From: a virus
Lineage: Duplodnaviria; Caudoviricetes
Virus record (IMG/VR): IMGVR_UViG_3300017560_000002
Span: 3,587-67,586 of that record
Strand: one strand, 5' to 3'
Length of the DNA: 64,000 nucleotides
In this document: positions 1-13,536 of the stretch, one piece after another
How the letters are laid out: the number at the start of each line of letters is the position of its first letter
Numbering within the stretch: the stretch's first letter is position 1
Position numbers and translations under genes: made by a program
The notes under the pieces: model-generated
What the model was told of the DNA's origin: nothing
What the model saw: only the letters and a program-made list of their open reading frames with translations
Databases searched by the model: none

Positions 1-791
1 TGCTGGTCCGGATAGCAGTCGCCGCTGCTCTTCTCGTCGCCGTTGACTACGATGTTCCCGACGCGGATCGGGAAAGTCCGCAGCACCAGCATCGTCGGGC
101 CGACGAAGTGCGGATGAATTCCGGCGTCGGAAGCCGCCTGCGCGATGGTGCAGTCGCGCGACGTGCAGTGAGGGTAGAACTTGTTGTTGAGGCCGAGACT
201 GATGCCCTGCGGCACTTCGACCAGTACCGACTTGCCCTTCTGCATCGCGTAGTTGATATCGATCCGACGGACGTAGTCGCGGAGCTTCGGATGGTTACGG
301 GCAATGACGCCCGATCGCGACACCTTGCGCGCCAGCGCTTCACCGACGCCCTTTCGGGTGCTGGAAATCGCCGACTGCGGACTGTCGTCCCGGTTCTCCG
401 CGTTCTTGCACTCTTCGGTGATAATCGCGGCGTTGGGATGAATATGGAACCGCTTCGAGTGGTGCCACGGCGCATCGCGGGCCACTTGGTCCATTTCGTT
501 GAAGAGCGTGGACACGTCGATGATCGAGCCGGCATTCAGGTAGACGAGCTCGGAGCCCGGATTGACGAGCGGATAAGTCGGCAGGTGGAATACGACCCGC
601 TTAAGGCCCTTGTGTAGCGAAGTGTGGCCGGCCTGCGCTCCCGCGTTGGTGGTCACGACGTCGAAATTCAGGCTGCGCTCCGCCATGCGGGCGGCCAGCC
701 ACGCCGCCGCTGCACCCTTGGCTTCGGAGCCGTACTGTCCACCGACGATAAACGACGCCTTACCCTTAACCAGAAAGTCCTCGATCTGCAT
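1..791 (-). CDS. purZ: PurZ, adenylosuccinate synthetase-like 2-aminoadenine pathway enzyme (3' end runs off the window)
   Basis: Hand translation from ATG 791: MQIEDFLVKGKASFIVGGQYGSEAKG..NAGAQAGHT..STRKGVG..EVPQGISLGLNNKFYPHCTSRDCT..VLRTFPIRVGN..SSGDCYPDQ. PurA-family motifs with Ser in place of the catalytic Asp of GDEGKG. Not in the ORF track. Confidence 0.92.
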   Translation of the reverse strand, partial: MQIEDFLVKGKASFIVGGQYGSEAKGAAAAWLAARMAERSLNFDVVTTNAGAQAGHTSLHKGLKRVVFHLPTYPLVNPGSELVYLNAGSIIDVSTLFNEMDQVARDAPWHHSKRFHIHPNAAIITEECKNAENRDDSPQSAISSTRKGVGEALARKVSRSGVIARNHPKLRDYVRRIDINYAMQKGKSVLVEVPQGISLGLNNKFYPHCTSRDCTIAQAASDAGIHPHFVGPTMLVLRTFPIRVGNIVVNGDEKSSGDCYPDQ

Positions 792-800
792 TGGTCGCCC

Positions 801-1256
801 CTATTCTCTCTTCAAGAATTCTTGAAGTAGCTCCGTGATCCGATAGTTTCGCACTTCGTGGTTTCCGACGAACGTGTGGTTTATTACGTCGGTTTTGTAC
901 TGGTTCATGGCGCACACGTACAGACCTAGGAAATTTAGGTGCAGGTGTCGCACCGTATTGCCGCCAATAAGCACGCCTGACAGCACGCCGCAAGTCATAC
1001 CGGCCGCGTCGTATTCCCCGAGGATCGTTTGCTGCGGCACCGTCACGTCGAGCTTGAATACGTGCGACTTCACCCGCTTGTTCTTCGGCGCAGCGAACTT
1101 GTTCAGCTTTACTTCGATCAGCGCCGCCTGATAGCCGGGCACCTTGACGAGCAGATCAGGAATGCCGATCAGGAAGCGGTTGGAGAGTTTGTGAGACGCG
1201 CCGCCGACTTCCTCGACTACGTCGATGATCAGACGCTGGAGTTCGACTTCTTTCAC
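801..1256 (-). CDS. PD-(D/E)XK nuclease, VRR-NUC/Holliday junction resolvase-like
   Basis: GIPDLLVK...LIEVK motif; lies in the replication cluster. Confidence 0.7.
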   Translation of the reverse strand: MKEVELQRLIIDVVEEVGGASHKLSNRFLIGIPDLLVKVPGYQAALIEVKLNKFAAPKNKRVKSHVFKLDVTVPQQTILGEYDAAGMTCGVLSGVLIGGNTVRHLHLNFLGLYVCAMNQYKTDVINHTFVGNHEVRNYRITELLQEFLKRE

Positions 1257-1412: not shown

Positions 1413-3575
1413 CTAGGCTTCGGCGCGTGCCTCACCCTTGGATTTCTTTCTGGTTCCGGTTCCGTTCGCACGCTTGGCGGGTGCGTTGGTAGCGGCGGGC
1501 TTCGGAGCTTCTTTCTTGGGCTTCTCTGGCCCGTACGTGGCGATTGCCCAGTTCGGGCCTTCACCCTCGTCGACGACGATCGGTATGTCGAGGGTGATCA
1601 CGTCGTCCGGACCAAACGACTGCATGATGTCGATGCAGCGGCGGTAGATCGGGCGGTCCTCTTCCGGAAACTGGAAGTCGACGGCGTCGTGGACCGTATT
1701 CAGCATATCGACTGCCGAATCCGCCTCGTCGAGGTATTCCGACATTTCCACGAGCTTGAGTTTCATGCAGTCGGCGTTACCGCCTTGGAGCGCCCGATTG
1801 AGCGCGACGTAGTCCTTGTTGGGATCAAGCAGCCGGCACCGCCGACCCAGCAGCGTAATCAGGTAGCCGCGCTGGCGCATACGCTTCGACATCCGCTTCT
1901 GGATGTCCTTGATTTCAGGCATTGCCCGGAAGTAATCGGCCCAGACGCGATCGACTTCCGCCGGGTCGACCTTGTACTTGCTGACGAGAACGCCCTTACC
2001 GCCGCCGGTAATAATCGTCTGGTTGATGCGCTTGGCGTAGGCGTTTCGGTAGTGCTTCTGTTCGTTTTCGTTCAGGTTGTGCCACTCGCGATTGGCGGCG
2101 ACGGCCACGGCGGTATGAGCGTCGATCGGCGGGCTCGACGTGTAGCCGTTGAAGAGCACCTTGCAGCGTGAATAGTAGGCCAGCAGCCGGGGTTCCATCT
2201 GGCTATAGTCGGTGGACGCCCATATCTTGCCTTCGTCGGGCACGAAAATCGATCGGAAGAGCCGCCCGATCTCTTCGTTGTGCTTAGGCACGGCCTGCAG
2301 GTTCGGACTGTCAGACGACAGCCGGCCCGTAATCGTGCCGAATTCGTCGTTTCTCAACTGGTTGAAATTCGTGTGGACGCGGCCGTTCCACAAGTGCGTC
2401 GTCATCAGCGGCTGGACGAACGTGTCGCGCAGCGTCATAAACTTGCGGAGCGACACGACGGCCCGGCCCGCGTCGTGGGTTTCGAGCCACGATTCCTGCA
2501 TCGACGGCTGACCCTGCGGAAAGCGCTTGCTGGCTGGCGTCATCGGCCAGTTGGTGCAGCCGTGCTTCTCCATCCAGTGCCGCACGTCGTCCGGGCTGCG
2601 GGCGTTGAAATCAGACGGAAACGAATTCAGGAGCCGCTCGATCTCACTCTTAATGTAAGCCCGCAGGCGGCTGAATTCACCCTCGTCGACCTTGATGCCC
2701 TTGACGCTCATGCGCGCCAGCACGTTGATCAGTCGGGATTCGACGTCCCATACGCGCTCAAGCTCCTGCAGCCGCAGTTGCTCCATCTGCCATTCGCGAA
2801 GCTGCCACGTGGTCGTACCGTCGCCGACGGCGTAATCCACCGCCATCGGATCGTCACCGGGCAAGCGCCAGTAGTGACCCATCGCCGACTTTCGTGCCGC
2901 CGCAGCTTCCGGGAACTTCTGGCACAGATACTCCACCATTTCCGCCGACTTCTTCGCCTGCACGCCGGCCACGTTGGCGCAGAACTCGAGCGAGAAGCGC
3001 CCCTGCCATTCGTTGATCAGACAGGCGTTGATCATAGTGTCTTCGGCGCGCGGCCGGAACCGATAGCCGACGCGCGACAGGAATTTCAGGTCGAAGTTTG
3101 CATGGTGAAATGTAAGCGTCGCGCCCTGTTTGTCGAACGCCTCGACGAGTTCCTTTTCGCCCGGCGCAAGCTTGCCGTCCCAACCCTCTGCGTGGGTCGG
3201 CCCGTTGTGTCCACCGACGTTCGCGTTACCAAGATGTCGGAATGGAACGTAGTAACTGTCCTGCGGCTTCGGACCGAACGTCAGCACGTATCCAACGATG
3301 TGGTTGCGCCGCCAGTCGAGGCCGCTGCCCTCCGTGTCAACGGCGATGTTGTTGCTGACCTTTAGCCGATTTAGGACTTCCTGCAGCCTGTCGGAGGCCG
3401 GATCGCCGCCTTTCTTCTTCGTTGAAGAACCGGACGACTTGGCTTGGGCTGTCGGTTTGTTTTCCGGCACATCGGTAGCTGATTTTGATTTTTTTGCCTT
3501 TGTAGTCGTGGACGACTGCGACGCCGGGACACTCTTCGCTGCTAAAGACTTCGAATTTCTGGCTTGGGCTGGCAT
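1413..3575 (-). CDS. Family A DNA polymerase with 3'-5' exonuclease domain (candidate DpoZ)
   Basis: Exo I DTEGSG, Exo II HHANFD, Exo III YAVGD; TITGRLSSDSPNLQ; motif A DYSQMEPR; motif C VHDA; no 5'-3' exonuclease domain. Confidence 0.93.
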   Translation of the reverse strand: MPAQARNSKSLAAKSVPASQSSTTTKAKKSKSATDVPENKPTAQAKSSGSSTKKKGGDPASDRLQEVLNRLKVSNNIAVDTEGSGLDWRRNHIVGYVLTFGPKPQDSYYVPFRHLGNANVGGHNGPTHAEGWDGKLAPGEKELVEAFDKQGATLTFHHANFDLKFLSRVGYRFRPRAEDTMINACLINEWQGRFSLEFCANVAGVQAKKSAEMVEYLCQKFPEAAAARKSAMGHYWRLPGDDPMAVDYAVGDGTTTWQLREWQMEQLRLQELERVWDVESRLINVLARMSVKGIKVDEGEFSRLRAYIKSEIERLLNSFPSDFNARSPDDVRHWMEKHGCTNWPMTPASKRFPQGQPSMQESWLETHDAGRAVVSLRKFMTLRDTFVQPLMTTHLWNGRVHTNFNQLRNDEFGTITGRLSSDSPNLQAVPKHNEEIGRLFRSIFVPDEGKIWASTDYSQMEPRLLAYYSRCKVLFNGYTSSPPIDAHTAVAVAANREWHNLNENEQKHYRNAYAKRINQTIITGGGKGVLVSKYKVDPAEVDRVWADYFRAMPEIKDIQKRMSKRMRQRGYLITLLGRRCRLLDPNKDYVALNRALQGGNADCMKLKLVEMSEYLDEADSAVDMLNTVHDAVDFQFPEEDRPIYRRCIDIMQSFGPDDVITLDIPIVVDEGEGPNWAIATYGPEKPKKEAPKPAATNAPAKRANGTGTRKKSKGEARAEA

Positions 3576-4096: not shown

Positions 4097-5107
4097 TCAG
4101 AACCGGCGGTGGCCGGTCTGCGGCTTACCGTCCTCGCCGTCGTCGTTCGCGCCGTCGACGTCCTCTTCCTGCAGCGTCTCGATGTCCTTGATCTGCAGGC
4201 CCGTGGTGCGGAATGCGTTATGCATGTCGCGATACAGGTTGTACTGGTCCTCGTCCTCGACCATGCCGTTGCCGACGACGTTGACCGAGTAGAAGTCCTG
4301 ATTCGCGGCGTTGTGGTCAAGGAACGGCGCGAAATCGAACTTGAGGCCGAATATCGGAAGCCGCGTGGTCTTGAGTTTGGTATTCAGCTTCCTGCCGACC
4401 TTGATCAGCGAGCGCTGGAAGGTGAATACTGCCGGCATCAGGTCCGGGTAGTCCGGGAACGCCAGCACGAAATTGTACATCAGCGTCGCGGCCGGCGGCG
4501 AATTCGAGTTGTCCGGGTCGGACGTTCCCCAGTTGGCGAGGCCCGATCTCTCGACGGTCGGCGCGAGTTTCCACGTGACGGTCTTGCCGCCCTGATTGCG
4601 GTTCAGCTGGACCGTGAATTCACCAGCCGACGGCGACCAGTGAATTCCGTCGTCGGCGCGCGCCAGAATGCCACCGCCGCTGTCCTGCGGACGCCACAGC
4701 AAGTAGCGGCGCTCCATGAACACCGGCACCGTCGTCAGCGGGCCTTCGAGTATCTGCTCGGCAGCCGTGTGGAAGAACTGGCCGGGACGCAGGTCGTTGT
4801 AGACGTGGAGCTCCGGCGACAGAGCCTGAATAAGTTTCAGGCGCGGCGTCTCCAAGTCCTCGCGCCCGATCGCTTCCTTGCCGACATCGACGTCCTGTCG
4901 CATGAAGGCCGGCATATTGGCGGTCGAAACCTCTGCCGGCGGCGGCGCGGGCTTGCGGTTGGCGGGCACCGATGACTTGTTGGCGGGCGCAGCGGCGCGG
5001 CGCTCCGGTTCGGGCTCCCGTCCCTGAGAGCGGGCAGCCTGTGCGGCACGGCCTTGCGGCTTTGCGGGAGCGGCGTTTCTCGACGCCGGGGTTGGTGTCT
5101 TTGCCAT
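4097..5107 (-). CDS. Putative ssDNA-binding/annealing replication protein
   Basis: ETPRLKLIQALSPE core, acidic C-terminus, position upstream of the polymerase. Confidence 0.55.
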   Translation of the reverse strand: MAKTPTPASRNAAPAKPQGRAAQAARSQGREPEPERRAAAPANKSSVPANRKPAPPPAEVSTANMPAFMRQDVDVGKEAIGREDLETPRLKLIQALSPELHVYNDLRPGQFFHTAAEQILEGPLTTVPVFMERRYLLWRPQDSGGGILARADDGIHWSPSAGEFTVQLNRNQGGKTVTWKLAPTVERSGLANWGTSDPDNSNSPPAATLMYNFVLAFPDYPDLMPAVFTFQRSLIKVGRKLNTKLKTTRLPIFGLKFDFAPFLDHNAANQDFYSVNVVGNGMVEDEDQYNLYRDMHNAFRTTGLQIKDIETLQEEDVDGANDDGEDGKPQTGHRRF

Positions 5108-5229: not shown

Positions 5230-5799
5230 TTACTTGACCGCAGTAACGCTGGTAATGGGCAGATTGACCACGTTAAACAGGTCCTGCGGAAGCTCCTTGT
5301 TCTGGTTCTCCAGCATGTCGCGTGCCAGCGACGACAAGCTGCTGGCGTTGATGGTTTCCGACAACAGGTCGGGAAATTCCTTGCGTACCCACGCGTAAGC
5401 GTCTTCCTTGCGCTTGGAATTGATGCTGGCCCGCATCAGGTAGGCCACGCCGACGCGGAAGCCCTCAGCCAGCGGAACGTTGGTGATGCCGGCCTGCTCG
5501 AAGATTGCCGGAAGCTCCAGCGTCTTGTAGTGCTCGAAGGCCGACCCGACGCCCTTAACCTTGGCGTCGACCGTCGTAACCAGACGGTGCAGGACGGTGA
5601 AAGACCGGGCCAGATCGATCGCCCCGCGTTTCTTCGCAGCGGCGAGTTCCTTCTCCAGCTTCGGTATCAACTTTTCGATGGCGTCGGCGTGCTTGACGAT
5701 CTCCGACGCCACCGGTAGCGCGGCGAGAAGGGACTTCGGAAGGGGGGTAGGCGCGGGCTTAGCGGCAGCAGCCGCCTTAGGCTTGGAAGCCATCGGCAA
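5230..5799 (-). CDS. Conserved-looking phage hypothetical protein of the replication module
   Basis: Leader motif CGAGATAGGAG upstream; helical N-terminal half. Confidence 0.7.
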   Translation of the reverse strand: MPMASKPKAAAAAKPAPTPLPKSLLAALPVASEIVKHADAIEKLIPKLEKELAAAKKRGAIDLARSFTVLHRLVTTVDAKVKGVGSAFEHYKTLELPAIFEQAGITNVPLAEGFRVGVAYLMRASINSKRKEDAYAWVRKEFPDLLSETINASSLSSLARDMLENQNKELPQDLFNVVNLPITSVTAVK

Positions 5800-11920: not shown

Positions 11921-12327
11921 CGCCCGGCAGCTTCGCGCGCCAGCCTTTCCGCGCGTCTCTGCTGGGCTCCGGAGAGCTTCTTCGGTGGCCGGGTAGCTTT
12001 GGGCGCGGCCGGCTTTGCAGGCGGCTCGTCGGCCTTCCTTGCGGCTTTCTTGACCGCCTGCACGGTCGGTGGCAGCGACACTGCGACTTTCACCCGATCG
12101 ACTTCCGCAGCCGACCGACGGTCCGGTGTCTGAATTTCAGGCGGTGACGTGCCGACGTGGCGCAGGAATTCGTTGGTGACACACTGCGTCCGTCCGTTAT
12201 CCCAGCCTACTTCCGAGACTTCCAGACCGGGAACTTTGATGGTGCCCGTCATGCCGCTGTGCGTCGAGCCGATGTCGTAGACGCGGTCACCCTTCTGAAA
12301 AGCCGGCGGCGTCTTATCCTTCGGCAT
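11917..12327 (-). CDS. Hypothetical protein with an SH3-like N-terminus and a basic tail
   Basis: FQKGDRVY..G.I....EVGWDNG; Lys/Ala/Pro-rich C-terminus. Confidence 0.55.
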   Translation of the reverse strand: MPKDKTPPAFQKGDRVYDIGSTHSGMTGTIKVPGLEVSEVGWDNGRTQCVTNEFLRHVGTSPPEIQTPDRRSAAEVDRVKVAVSLPPTVQAVKKAARKADEPPAKPAAPKATRPPKKLSGAQQRRAERLAREAAGR

Positions 12328-12958
12328 GGCAAAATTCCCCGAGTTCCGCCTCGCCCATGCCGCAACGACGGCACAGACCTAGCACGACTTCGCCGTTCCG
12401 ATCCTTGATTGCGTCGGGTGCGTCCGCGTCACCGGTCTGGTACAAGTGGTGGCGGCCGGACGGTGGCGGCGATCCCTCCAGAATGGCCGTCTGCGGACCG
12501 GCCTGCTGGTCTTGGTACTTGCCTTCGTACGGCAGCGCCGTGCGGTGGTCCAGCTGGTGGAAGACGATCTGGGCAATTCCGGAGCCGGCTTCGACGTATA
12601 TCGGCACGGCCGGCGGCGTCTGTCCTCTGTCCGGTAGACGCGGTGGCCCGTGGTAAGTGATCTCGAGCGTCAGAAAGCCACGCCAGCCGGGCTCGATCAC
12701 AGTGTTCTGGACGAACAGGCCGCGACGCGCCCAAGTGCTCTTGTCGTGTACGACGGCGAGCACGGCACCCGGCATGTTGAAGCGCTCGACAGTGCTGGCT
12801 AGCACGAACTGACCGGGAAGCAACACGAGCTTCTCGGCAACGCGCACGTCGTAACCGGCCGGTCCCAGCCCGAAGGTCACGCCATTGTGGCGCGTCCTCT
12901 GGCAGAACGGTTCGACAGGCTGGAGCGCCTGAATGGTCTGTGCCGACAGGACCGTCAT
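12314..12958 (-). CDS. dcd: dCTP deaminase (trimeric dUTPase superfamily)
   Basis: AGYDVR, KSTWARRG, TVIEPGWRGFLTLE motifs. Confidence 0.85.
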   Translation of the reverse strand: MTVLSAQTIQALQPVEPFCQRTRHNGVTFGLGPAGYDVRVAEKLVLLPGQFVLASTVERFNMPGAVLAVVHDKSTWARRGLFVQNTVIEPGWRGFLTLEITYHGPPRLPDRGQTPPAVPIYVEAGSGIAQIVFHQLDHRTALPYEGKYQDQQAGPQTAILEGSPPPSGRHHLYQTGDADAPDAIKDRNGEVVLGLCRRCGMGEAELGEFCHAEG

Positions 12959-13536
12959 TGCTCGCTTCCCTCCCGCATCAGTTCCTTACGGAGGCACTCG
13001 GCGTCGGCAGCTTGAATTTCAGCCGCCCGCGCCTCGACGGCCGCTTCGGAGAACAGCCCTTCAAACAGGGCGCGTACGTCCTCCGGACTGCGGGCCGGAT
13101 CGGTCGGCTCCATTGCGAAAATCTCCAGAATTTCGCCCGCCTTGCCCTTCACCGGCCGGTTATCGATCAACTTACCGCACGCCAGCGCGTCCATATAGAT
13201 GGCGGCGTTGGCAAGGATGAAGCAACCGTGGTGAATGCCGGTCTTGGTGTCGTAGTCCTGCCCGTCCTTGAGAGCCTTGACGTGGCGCTCGAGCGCTTCG
13301 ATGTAGACGAGCGCGAGCACCTTTGCGACGCGGTAATTGTACGGCCCGTATTTGCCGGCACCGTTACCCATGCCGATCGCGGTAAAGACTTCGGCGGTGG
13401 CCGGCACGACGCCGAGCGGAACCTTGAGGTCCCCGAGACCGTCCTTAGGGTTGACGCTGTTCTCGGCGACGGGGCGCAGGCCGCTTACGTATCCGGGCGC
13501 GCGATATGGCGCGGCCGTTCTCTGGTTGTCCGACAT
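12955..13536 (-). CDS. DUF5664-type dATP/dGTP diphosphohydrolase
   Basis: NPKD..G..KVPL.VVP..GAGKYGPYNYR..ALERH...G.DYD..TG.HH...LAN pattern. Confidence 0.75.
   Translation of the reverse strand: MSDNQRTAAPYRAPGYVSGLRPVAENSVNPKDGLGDLKVPLGVVPATAEVFTAIGMGNGAGKYGPYNYRVAKVLALVYIEALERHVKALKDGQDYDTKTGIHHGCFILANAAIYMDALACGKLIDNRPVKGKAGEILEIFAMEPTDPARSPEDVRALFEGLFSEAAVEARAAEIQAADAECLRKELMREGSEQ

Follow-up and report, generated by a model that had tools for sequence, protein, structure and literature searches.

Can a phage DNA polymerase that has exchanged both aromatic residues of its helix O for polar ones be a replicase adapted to 2-aminoadenine (Z) in place of adenine (A)? This question is raised by P0001, the gene of a family-A DNA polymerase (PolA) in an uncultured phage. 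The window analysed is the whole stretch of 64,000 nucleotides that makes up bases 3587-67586 of the IMG/VR virus record IMGVR_UViG_3300017560_000002, which is 67,586 bp in length, has a 41-bp terminal repeat, and is judged 100% complete. Coordinates refer to the window unless the genome is named. A sequence-only reading had placed Gln and Thr at the sites of F762 and Y766 of the Klenow polymerase, and had proposed that the loss of both aromatics could adapt the enzyme to dZTP, possibly in a lineage distinct from the characterised Z-specific polymerases (DpoZ). From its sequence, P0001 is very probably a member of a third PolA lineage linked to purZ, in addition to the phiVC8-like and the Wayne-like DpoZ; its identity and this placement, taken together, are held with high confidence. 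The gene is laid out as follows.

[quoted passage not shown]

2802 to 3395, minus strand: 3'-5' exonuclease domain, residues ~61-258 (PF01612; motif alignment with Klenow)

1545 to 2654, minus strand: polymerase domain, residues 308-677 (Pfam, alignments)

1998 to 2039, minus strand: motif B, or helix O, Y513-G526, YAKRINQTIITGGG (translation, alignments, model)

Membership of P0001 in family A is indicated by above-threshold hidden Markov model scores in Pfam (184.5 bits with PF00476, gathering threshold 34.3; 31.7 bits with PF01612, threshold 23.6) and by motifs A, B (K758), C (HD) and TGR, all of which are present. The translation includes HYRNAYAKRINQTIITGGGKG. In a phmmer comparison with the Klenow chains, 'akrinqtiitg' of P0001 is paired with 'AKAINFGLIYG', giving the register K515=K758, N518=N761, Q519=F762, T523=Y766, and G524=G767, and two independent MAFFT alignments give the identical register for motif B. 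In the AlphaFold2 model of P0001 (predicted local distance difference test score, pLDDT, 84.1; predicted template modelling score, pTM, 0.81), residues 503-522 form a single helix, with T523 at its C-terminal end, matching the position of Y766 on helix O. Gln at 762 and Thr at 766 are therefore confirmed by the ORF translation, phmmer, the MAFFT register and the model helix. The codons of Gln519 and Thr523 are at 2019-2021 and 2007-2009 (minus strand), and the whole motif falls inside 1995-2055, where the sequence-only reading had located it.

That reading had also named F, Y or L as the usual residues at 762 in phage PolAs, which is consistent with the literature (PMC6302109, PMC10201439). 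Across 19 PolA clusters, position B3 (Klenow 762) is only F, Y or L, and position B4 (Klenow 766) is Tyr, with F unique to the two DpoZ clusters (PMC10201439). P0001, carrying Gln519 and Thr523, has neither an aromatic residue or Leu at B3 nor Tyr or Phe at B4. Types of motif B are given below as the residues at B3/B4, that of P0001 being Q/T. When P0001 was aligned with the DpoZ and PolA families, the Q/T register held, and P0001 stood apart from the phiVC8-like DpoZ. The subgroup of P0001 also has ~13 additional residues (EWHNLNENEQKHY) ahead of helix O (residues ~496-517; window 2025-2090, minus strand), at the site of the 7-residue insertion 2 of phiVC8 DpoZ, and a single residue is added between R510, a conserved Arg, and K515.

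Q/T is a signature shared by a clade and no isolated change. Among the candidates scored, 978 collection proteins match P0001 at E ≤ 0.001, and the best 120 of them are 52-68% identical to it. Motif B in these 120 nearest homologues is Q/T in 111, Q/S in 4, M/T in 3, Q/A in 1, and M/S in 1, and none has an aromatic residue at the 762 or the 766 site. Because 111 of the 120 share Q/T, it is not a chance combination. The exact Q and T are conserved across polymerases that are just ~40% identical overall, which argues for selection on these residues. Two close homologues, P0010 (872 aa) and P0114 (886 aa), contain HNH_3, Hint_2 and intein-splicing domains (PF13392, PF13403, PF14890), indicating a putative intein within their polymerase genes.

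The linkage to purZ was assessed in loci from two sources. A scan of IMG/VR yielded 50 loci with an alignment as query (one locus with a single-protein query), and a metagenome scan yielded 80 further loci with search patterns in the exonuclease domain, so that motif B was not selected for. Over these loci the gene order Pam3-gp34-like, polymerase, g151, purZ, (g163), HD is retained nearly everywhere. purZ lies downstream of the Q/T polymerase in all 60 loci (60/60) that have at least 3 kb of downstream flank, and 43 of these polymerases are distinct (identity no higher than 85%). The sequence-only reading had named a motif common in phages without purZ as the outcome contrary to its proposal; none of the 60 Q/T loci lacks purZ, and this check thus does not refute the proposal. 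The scan of genome contigs returned a single 3.7-kb contig of a metagenome-assembled genome (MAG), with no prophage or host clue. This contig (L070, CAZUUO010000044.1), assigned to a MAG that bears the label 'uncultured Gammaproteobacteria bacterium', encodes an M/T polymerase of the lineage and is probably a piece of phage DNA that was wrongly binned with the MAG.

Phylogenetic trees were built with IQ-TREE from 104 rows in quick mode and from 43 rows in careful mode, with AY576273 as the phiJL001 sequence. They contain three well-supported groups. P0001 and all its metagenomic relatives form the third lineage with support 100/100, in which the one enzyme from a cultured phage is the Pol I of vB_OspP_OH, an Ochrobactrum phage. 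The phiVC8-like DpoZ (phiVC8, ZP6, Bm1, SH-Ab 15497, PMBT28) form another clade (100/100), and the phiJL001-like PolA (phiJL001, Pam3, Lucjan, Me-ZS1, Birtae, HTVC023P) a further one (100/99). The best tree joins the third lineage and the phiVC8-like DpoZ as sisters at 94/73, and the approximately unbiased (AU) test keeps both alternatives (p 0.21, 0.23). The suggestion of a lineage distinct from the characterised DpoZ is borne out by the separate 100/100 clade, by a score below the cut-off of the DpoZ model NF038380, and by the lack of insertions 2 and 3 of phiVC8 DpoZ.

Within the third lineage a graded series of motifs is found. The basal members that have purZ are L/Y (L034, L040, L042), and those in which no purZ was found are F/Y (L052, L125); it is only in the latter that the canonical F/Y occurs in the lineage. 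In the 104-row tree, an 84-row clade (support 95) lacks Tyr766 and includes M/T, L/T, M/S (vB_OspP_OH), and L/N (L050); a 68-row group with Gln762 (support 97) nests inside it. Because the Q762 clade is nested in the T766 clade, Tyr was changed to Thr at 766 first, and Leu or Met to Gln at 762 later. L050 (IMGVR_UViG_3300014969_000027, 46.5 kb, 100% complete) has the motif B AKTLGLSIFNGMQ, with Leu at 762, Asn at 766 and Asn761 changed to Gly, and no purZ is present anywhere in this complete record. Four metagenome contigs nested in the Q clade (L084-86, L091) have the motif B GKNANMTIINSGG, M/N, and no purZ or HD gene on contigs up to 13.9 kb; their polymerase gene is flanked by a gene for a class II ribonucleotide reductase on the upstream side, and by genes for an SNF2 helicase and an OmpA-like beta-barrel protein on the downstream side. 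This purZ-less nested group has therefore changed both Q and T. In each of the three PolA lineages linked to purZ, B4 has departed from Tyr (F, F, and T, respectively). The Klenow positions 711, 713, 802, 848, 852 and 887, in the second shell, covary with motif B, which fits either tuning or compensated drift.

Outside helix O the enzyme is largely intact. Exo I (DTE), Exo II (NFD) and Exo III (YAvgD) are all preserved in the alignment with Klenow. Motif A is DYSQMEPR, with the steric gate E710 retained, and P0001 further retains D705, the TGR Arg, K758, N761, Q849, H881 and D882, with NRALQG as motif 6. Motif C is VHDA (window 1677-1688, minus strand), E883 being replaced by Ala; the lineage generally has HDA or HDS here, and the basal L/Y members retain HDE. 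The phiVC8 DpoZ, an active enzyme, has Ser at the E883 site (HDS) (alignment; PMC8599892). The best Foldseek matches of the P0001 model are the Bst and Klenow Pol I (template modelling (TM) score 0.82), and 7PBK, the structure of phiVC8 DpoZ, is matched at TM 0.72. The tails of P0001, residues 1-55 (window 3411-3575) and 689-720 (window 1413-1511), are rich in Lys, Ser, Thr, Ala and Pro and predicted to be disordered (pLDDT < 50), and could be DNA-binding or processivity appendages. The longer homologues of P0001 (685-724 aa) span 90-98% of the query and may have similar tails.

The genes that accompany P0001 are listed next.

Genome 2279-2881, outside the window: HD/YfbR-like DatZ candidate (PF12917, 65.7 bits)

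1 to 791, minus strand: 5' part of purZ, a 360-aa gene that spans genome 3295-4377 and is cut by the window edge (PF00709, NF038379)

801 to 1256, minus strand: g151, a conserved 151-aa gene between the polymerase gene and purZ (tblastn: same position in most related loci)

4097 to 5107, minus strand: Pam3 gp34-like gene, directly upstream of the polymerase gene (PF23977, 126 bits; synteny in nearly all related loci)

5230 to 5799, minus strand: Pam3 gp33-like gene, upstream of the polymerase gene (PF23984)

12314 to 12958, minus strand: dCTP deaminase / dUTPase-fold protein (PF22769, 73.2 bits; TIGR02274, 86.3 bits, slightly below the cut-off of 92.8)

12955 to 13536, minus strand: MazZ-like dATP/dGTP diphosphohydrolase (PF18909, 61.3 bits)

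P0001 has the setting of a functional DpoZ: purZ lies one gene downstream, followed by the HD/YfbR-like gene, and the PF18909 gene is found in the same genome arm. The purZ product scores 109 bits with PF00709, and its best NCBIfam match is the PurZ model NF038379 (226 bits, cut-off 300), ahead of the PurA models. HD/YfbR-like is the domain type of DatZ (bioRxiv 10.1101/2025.10.22.683976). A 163-aa gene lies between purZ and the HD gene, and the conserved small genes nearby, g151, g163 and g122, have no match in Pfam, NCBIfam or PHROGs. The arm also encodes a DUF5906 primase-helicase and a UvrD helicase. The Pam3 gp34-like and gp33-like genes hold their upstream place across the lineage, including in the purZ-less L085. 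The genome thus has the complete complement of known Z-genome genes. Because purZ, the HD/DatZ-like dNTPase and the MazZ-like diphosphohydrolase occur together, we infer that the phage very probably makes Z DNA.

The question is then whether Q/T takes part in this. The explanation we prefer, to which about an even chance is given for identity, lineage and mechanism jointly, is that P0001 encodes the replicative, proofreading family-A polymerase of this complete 67.6-kb uncultured phage, and that it would be a DpoZ-like replicase with a weakened aromatic lid, whose synthesis leans on base-pair strength. The two helix-O aromatics whose places Gln519 and Thr523 take, F762 and Y766, pack against the incoming nucleotide and act as a gate for the templating base. 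Once this lid and the pre-insertion gate of Tyr are gone, shape complementarity would contribute less to closing the fingers, and the intrinsic strength of the nascent pair would contribute more. The pairs with three hydrogen bonds, Z:T and G:C, would be favoured for extension, while A:T would be extended less well, and more often rejected or passed to the intact exonuclease, the HD enzyme meanwhile depleting dATP. Klenow Y766S and Y766A are mutators, a behaviour with which this mechanism would be compatible, and F762 controls dideoxynucleotide (ddNTP) discrimination. The mechanism extends to the insertion step the pair-strength idea of the phiVC8 DpoZ model, in which selectivity is tied to base-pair strength, backtracking and proofreading (PMC8599892). 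Any Z-over-A preference, and a role of Q/T in it, are likewise what we infer from sequence, and that Q/T itself contributes measurably to the choice of Z over A is considered rather doubtful.

A bolder form of the proposal, which appears unlikely, is that the Gln762/Thr766 helix O could be the active-site solution of a third family of Z-DNA polymerases, biochemically unlike phiVC8 DpoZ. Its polar pocket would read the 2-amino group of dZTP or the 3'-OH region directly, or the Tyr gate would simply be removed, with three-hydrogen-bond selection at insertion and not by backtracking. If so, the build-up of Z specificity would be recorded in the series L/Y, L/T, M/T and Q/T and in the F/Y and M/N forms that lack purZ.

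Several observations weigh against a role of Q/T in the choice of Z, and most of them favour the strongest alternative, a serious one that is rated somewhat short of an even chance. On this view the Q/T helix O is a compensated variant peculiar to the lineage, has no bearing on the choice of Z over A, and travels with purZ by descent; adenine would be excluded by the HD enzyme, by the supply of dZTP from PurZ, and by general properties of the polymerase and exonuclease. Most directly, purZ-linked relatives within the lineage carry L/Y, L/T, M/T or M/S, and the phiVC8-like DpoZ are L/F; because of these, a Z genome can do without Q/T. Of the interpretation offered by the sequence-only reading, the distinct lineage is supported, and the loss of aromatics as an adaptation to dZTP keeps the standing of a proposal. 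Conversely, some relatives with no purZ found also lack the aromatics: L050 (L/N, in a complete genome) and L084 (M/N). Q762 has a single origin, in a lineage that already had purZ. Independent contrasts of purZ with T766, Q762 or a non-F/Y B3 number 4-5 pairs (p ≥ 0.5), and the sign test is unable to reach significance because the contrasts are so few. The second-shell positions shift with the motif, as they would in compensated drift.

Two papers also count against such a role. Cyanophage S-2L is fully substituted without a Z-specific polymerase, DpoZ being dispensable there, and B4 is judged unlikely to influence the choice between A and Z (PMC10201439), while the selectivity of phiVC8 DpoZ is placed in backtracking and proofreading (PMC8599892). 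With regard to the structural evidence for the preferred mechanism, the local pLDDT of the AlphaFold2 model is just 77-79 at residues 511-540, and the Foldseek comparison is of whole chains. The compensated variant is, however, at odds with the strict conservation of the motif at ~40% overall identity, which indicates purifying selection on the exact residues. Nor does it account readily for the distribution of motifs described above, in which F/Y is confined to members where no purZ was found, the nested purZ-less group has altered both residues, and all three purZ-linked lineages are non-Tyr at B4.

An improbable alternative is that the pocket serves another property of the substrate, either a relaxed selection of sugar (ddNTP or ribonucleotide, rNTP) or another modified base in the template or the pool. 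The residue classically responsible for ddNTP discrimination is F762, and Y766 aids the choice between dNTP and rNTP (PMC10201439); in addition, the neighbouring phiJL001-like phages (Pam3, phiJL001, Me-ZS1) carry genes for thymidine hypermodification or deazaguanine beside the polymerase gene, and a dCTP-deaminase-like gene is present in this genome. Yet the steric gate E710 is intact, and there are no other base-modification genes near the polymerase here or in the related loci examined, where the conserved neighbours are purZ and the HD gene. Finally, a decaying or non-catalytic polymerase, with replication left to a different enzyme (the DUF5906 primase-helicase protein, for example), is extremely unlikely and was rejected: two near-invariant residues are replaced and motif C is HDA instead of HDE, but the catalytic residues (D705, E710, K758, H881, D882 and others) and the three exonuclease motifs are present, more than 100 homologues are full-length and in open frame with the same motif, the fold is modelled confidently, and the active phiVC8 DpoZ likewise lacks E883 (PMC8599892).

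Two Z-specific PolA groups are recognised (PMC10201439, 2023; PMC12884076, 2026), and both papers ask if other PolA subfamilies, too, have made the A-to-Z shift. PolAs devoted to a Z genome are thus a known kind of enzyme; the third lineage and its Q/T signature are not described in the literature searched, a comparison that excludes phiDpoZ1 and phiDpoZ2 (bioRxiv 10.1101/2025.10.22.683976). The lineage is large: its distinct Q/T enzymes number at least 43 and come from many separate datasets, both metagenomes and viromes. In it the two best-studied fidelity residues of helix O are changed to residues not reported at those positions. The graded natural series, with reversions where no purZ is found, opens the structural basis of the choice of Z over A to direct tests. 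Its polar nascent-pair pocket could also make such a polymerase helpful in the synthesis of Z-DNA or other modified DNA.

Among known systems, the phiVC8-like DpoZ (cluster #18, NF038380, 7PBK) share the most features with P0001. Both are proofreading phage PolAs beside purZ, datZ and mazZ-type genes, both are non-aromatic at B3 and non-Tyr at B4, and in both E883 is often lost. phiVC8 DpoZ is the best sequence match of P0001 in the PDB (7pbk_A, 3.7e-42), and NF038380 (DpoZ_1) its top NCBIfam match. In contrast, P0001 reaches only 295.1 bits on NF038380, for which the cut-off is 500, and insertion 2 (helix O, A442-P448) and insertion 3 (fingertip, P473-K491) of phiVC8 DpoZ are gaps in the lineage of P0001 (L-INS-i). 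Motif B in the phiVC8-like DpoZ is KQMNLGMIFN, of type L/F (L455, F459), as found by alignment in phiVC8, SH-Ab 15497, PMBT28, ZP6 and Bm1, whereas it is KRINQT..TGGG in P0001, and the predicted fold of P0001 is nearer to Klenow and Bst than to 7PBK, by the TM scores given above.

The Pol I of vB_OspP_OH (Wolominvirus OH) belongs to the third lineage, and is the best cultured match both for the polymerase (31% identity) and, with its PurZ, for the purZ product (40%). The two phages share the gene neighbourhood of purZ, a pyrophosphohydrolase and a 5'-nucleotidase. Unlike P0001, the vB_OspP_OH polymerase lies on another branch and has the motif B GKRMAMGMLSMMY, in which N761 is replaced as well. 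It is annotated just as Pol I, and the paper describing the phage makes no mention of Z (PMC7139368).

The Wayne-like DpoZ (cluster #19, e.g. Arthrobacter phage BigMack) are similarly PolAs beside a purZ-type gene with a non-Tyr B4. Within PolA they are unrelated to P0001, with a D29-like affinity (PMC10201439), and they differ from it in motif B (AKRANFSLIFG, F/F, in BigMack), in their long and distant branch, and in helper genes of the dUTPase type. The phiJL001-like PolA (cluster #11; phiJL001, Pam3, Lucjan) are a neighbouring group of phage PolAs with a non-aromatic B3 (Leu), and the gp33-like and gp34-like genes upstream of P0001 are named after a phage of this group, Pam3. They differ in having no purZ, in keeping Tyr at B4, and in forming a separate clade. 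In this group (L060 Pam3, L061 Me-ZS1, L068 phiJL001) the polymerase gene has as its neighbours genes for hypermodifying thymidine (aGPT-Pplase, Nmad5, a homologue of thymidylate synthase, a glucosyltransferase) or genes for 7-deazaguanine (QueC, QueD, FolE, TGT), and therefore the whole PolA neighbourhood appears to be associated with modified DNA.

Substitutions at the same two helix-O sites are also known from Klenow Y766 and F762 mutants and from Bst Pol I Y714S, the structure of which with a G:T mismatch (PDB 3HPO) is among the structural matches of P0001. These, however, are laboratory changes in repair polymerases, whereas the small polar residues of P0001 are the conserved wild type of what would be a replicative enzyme.

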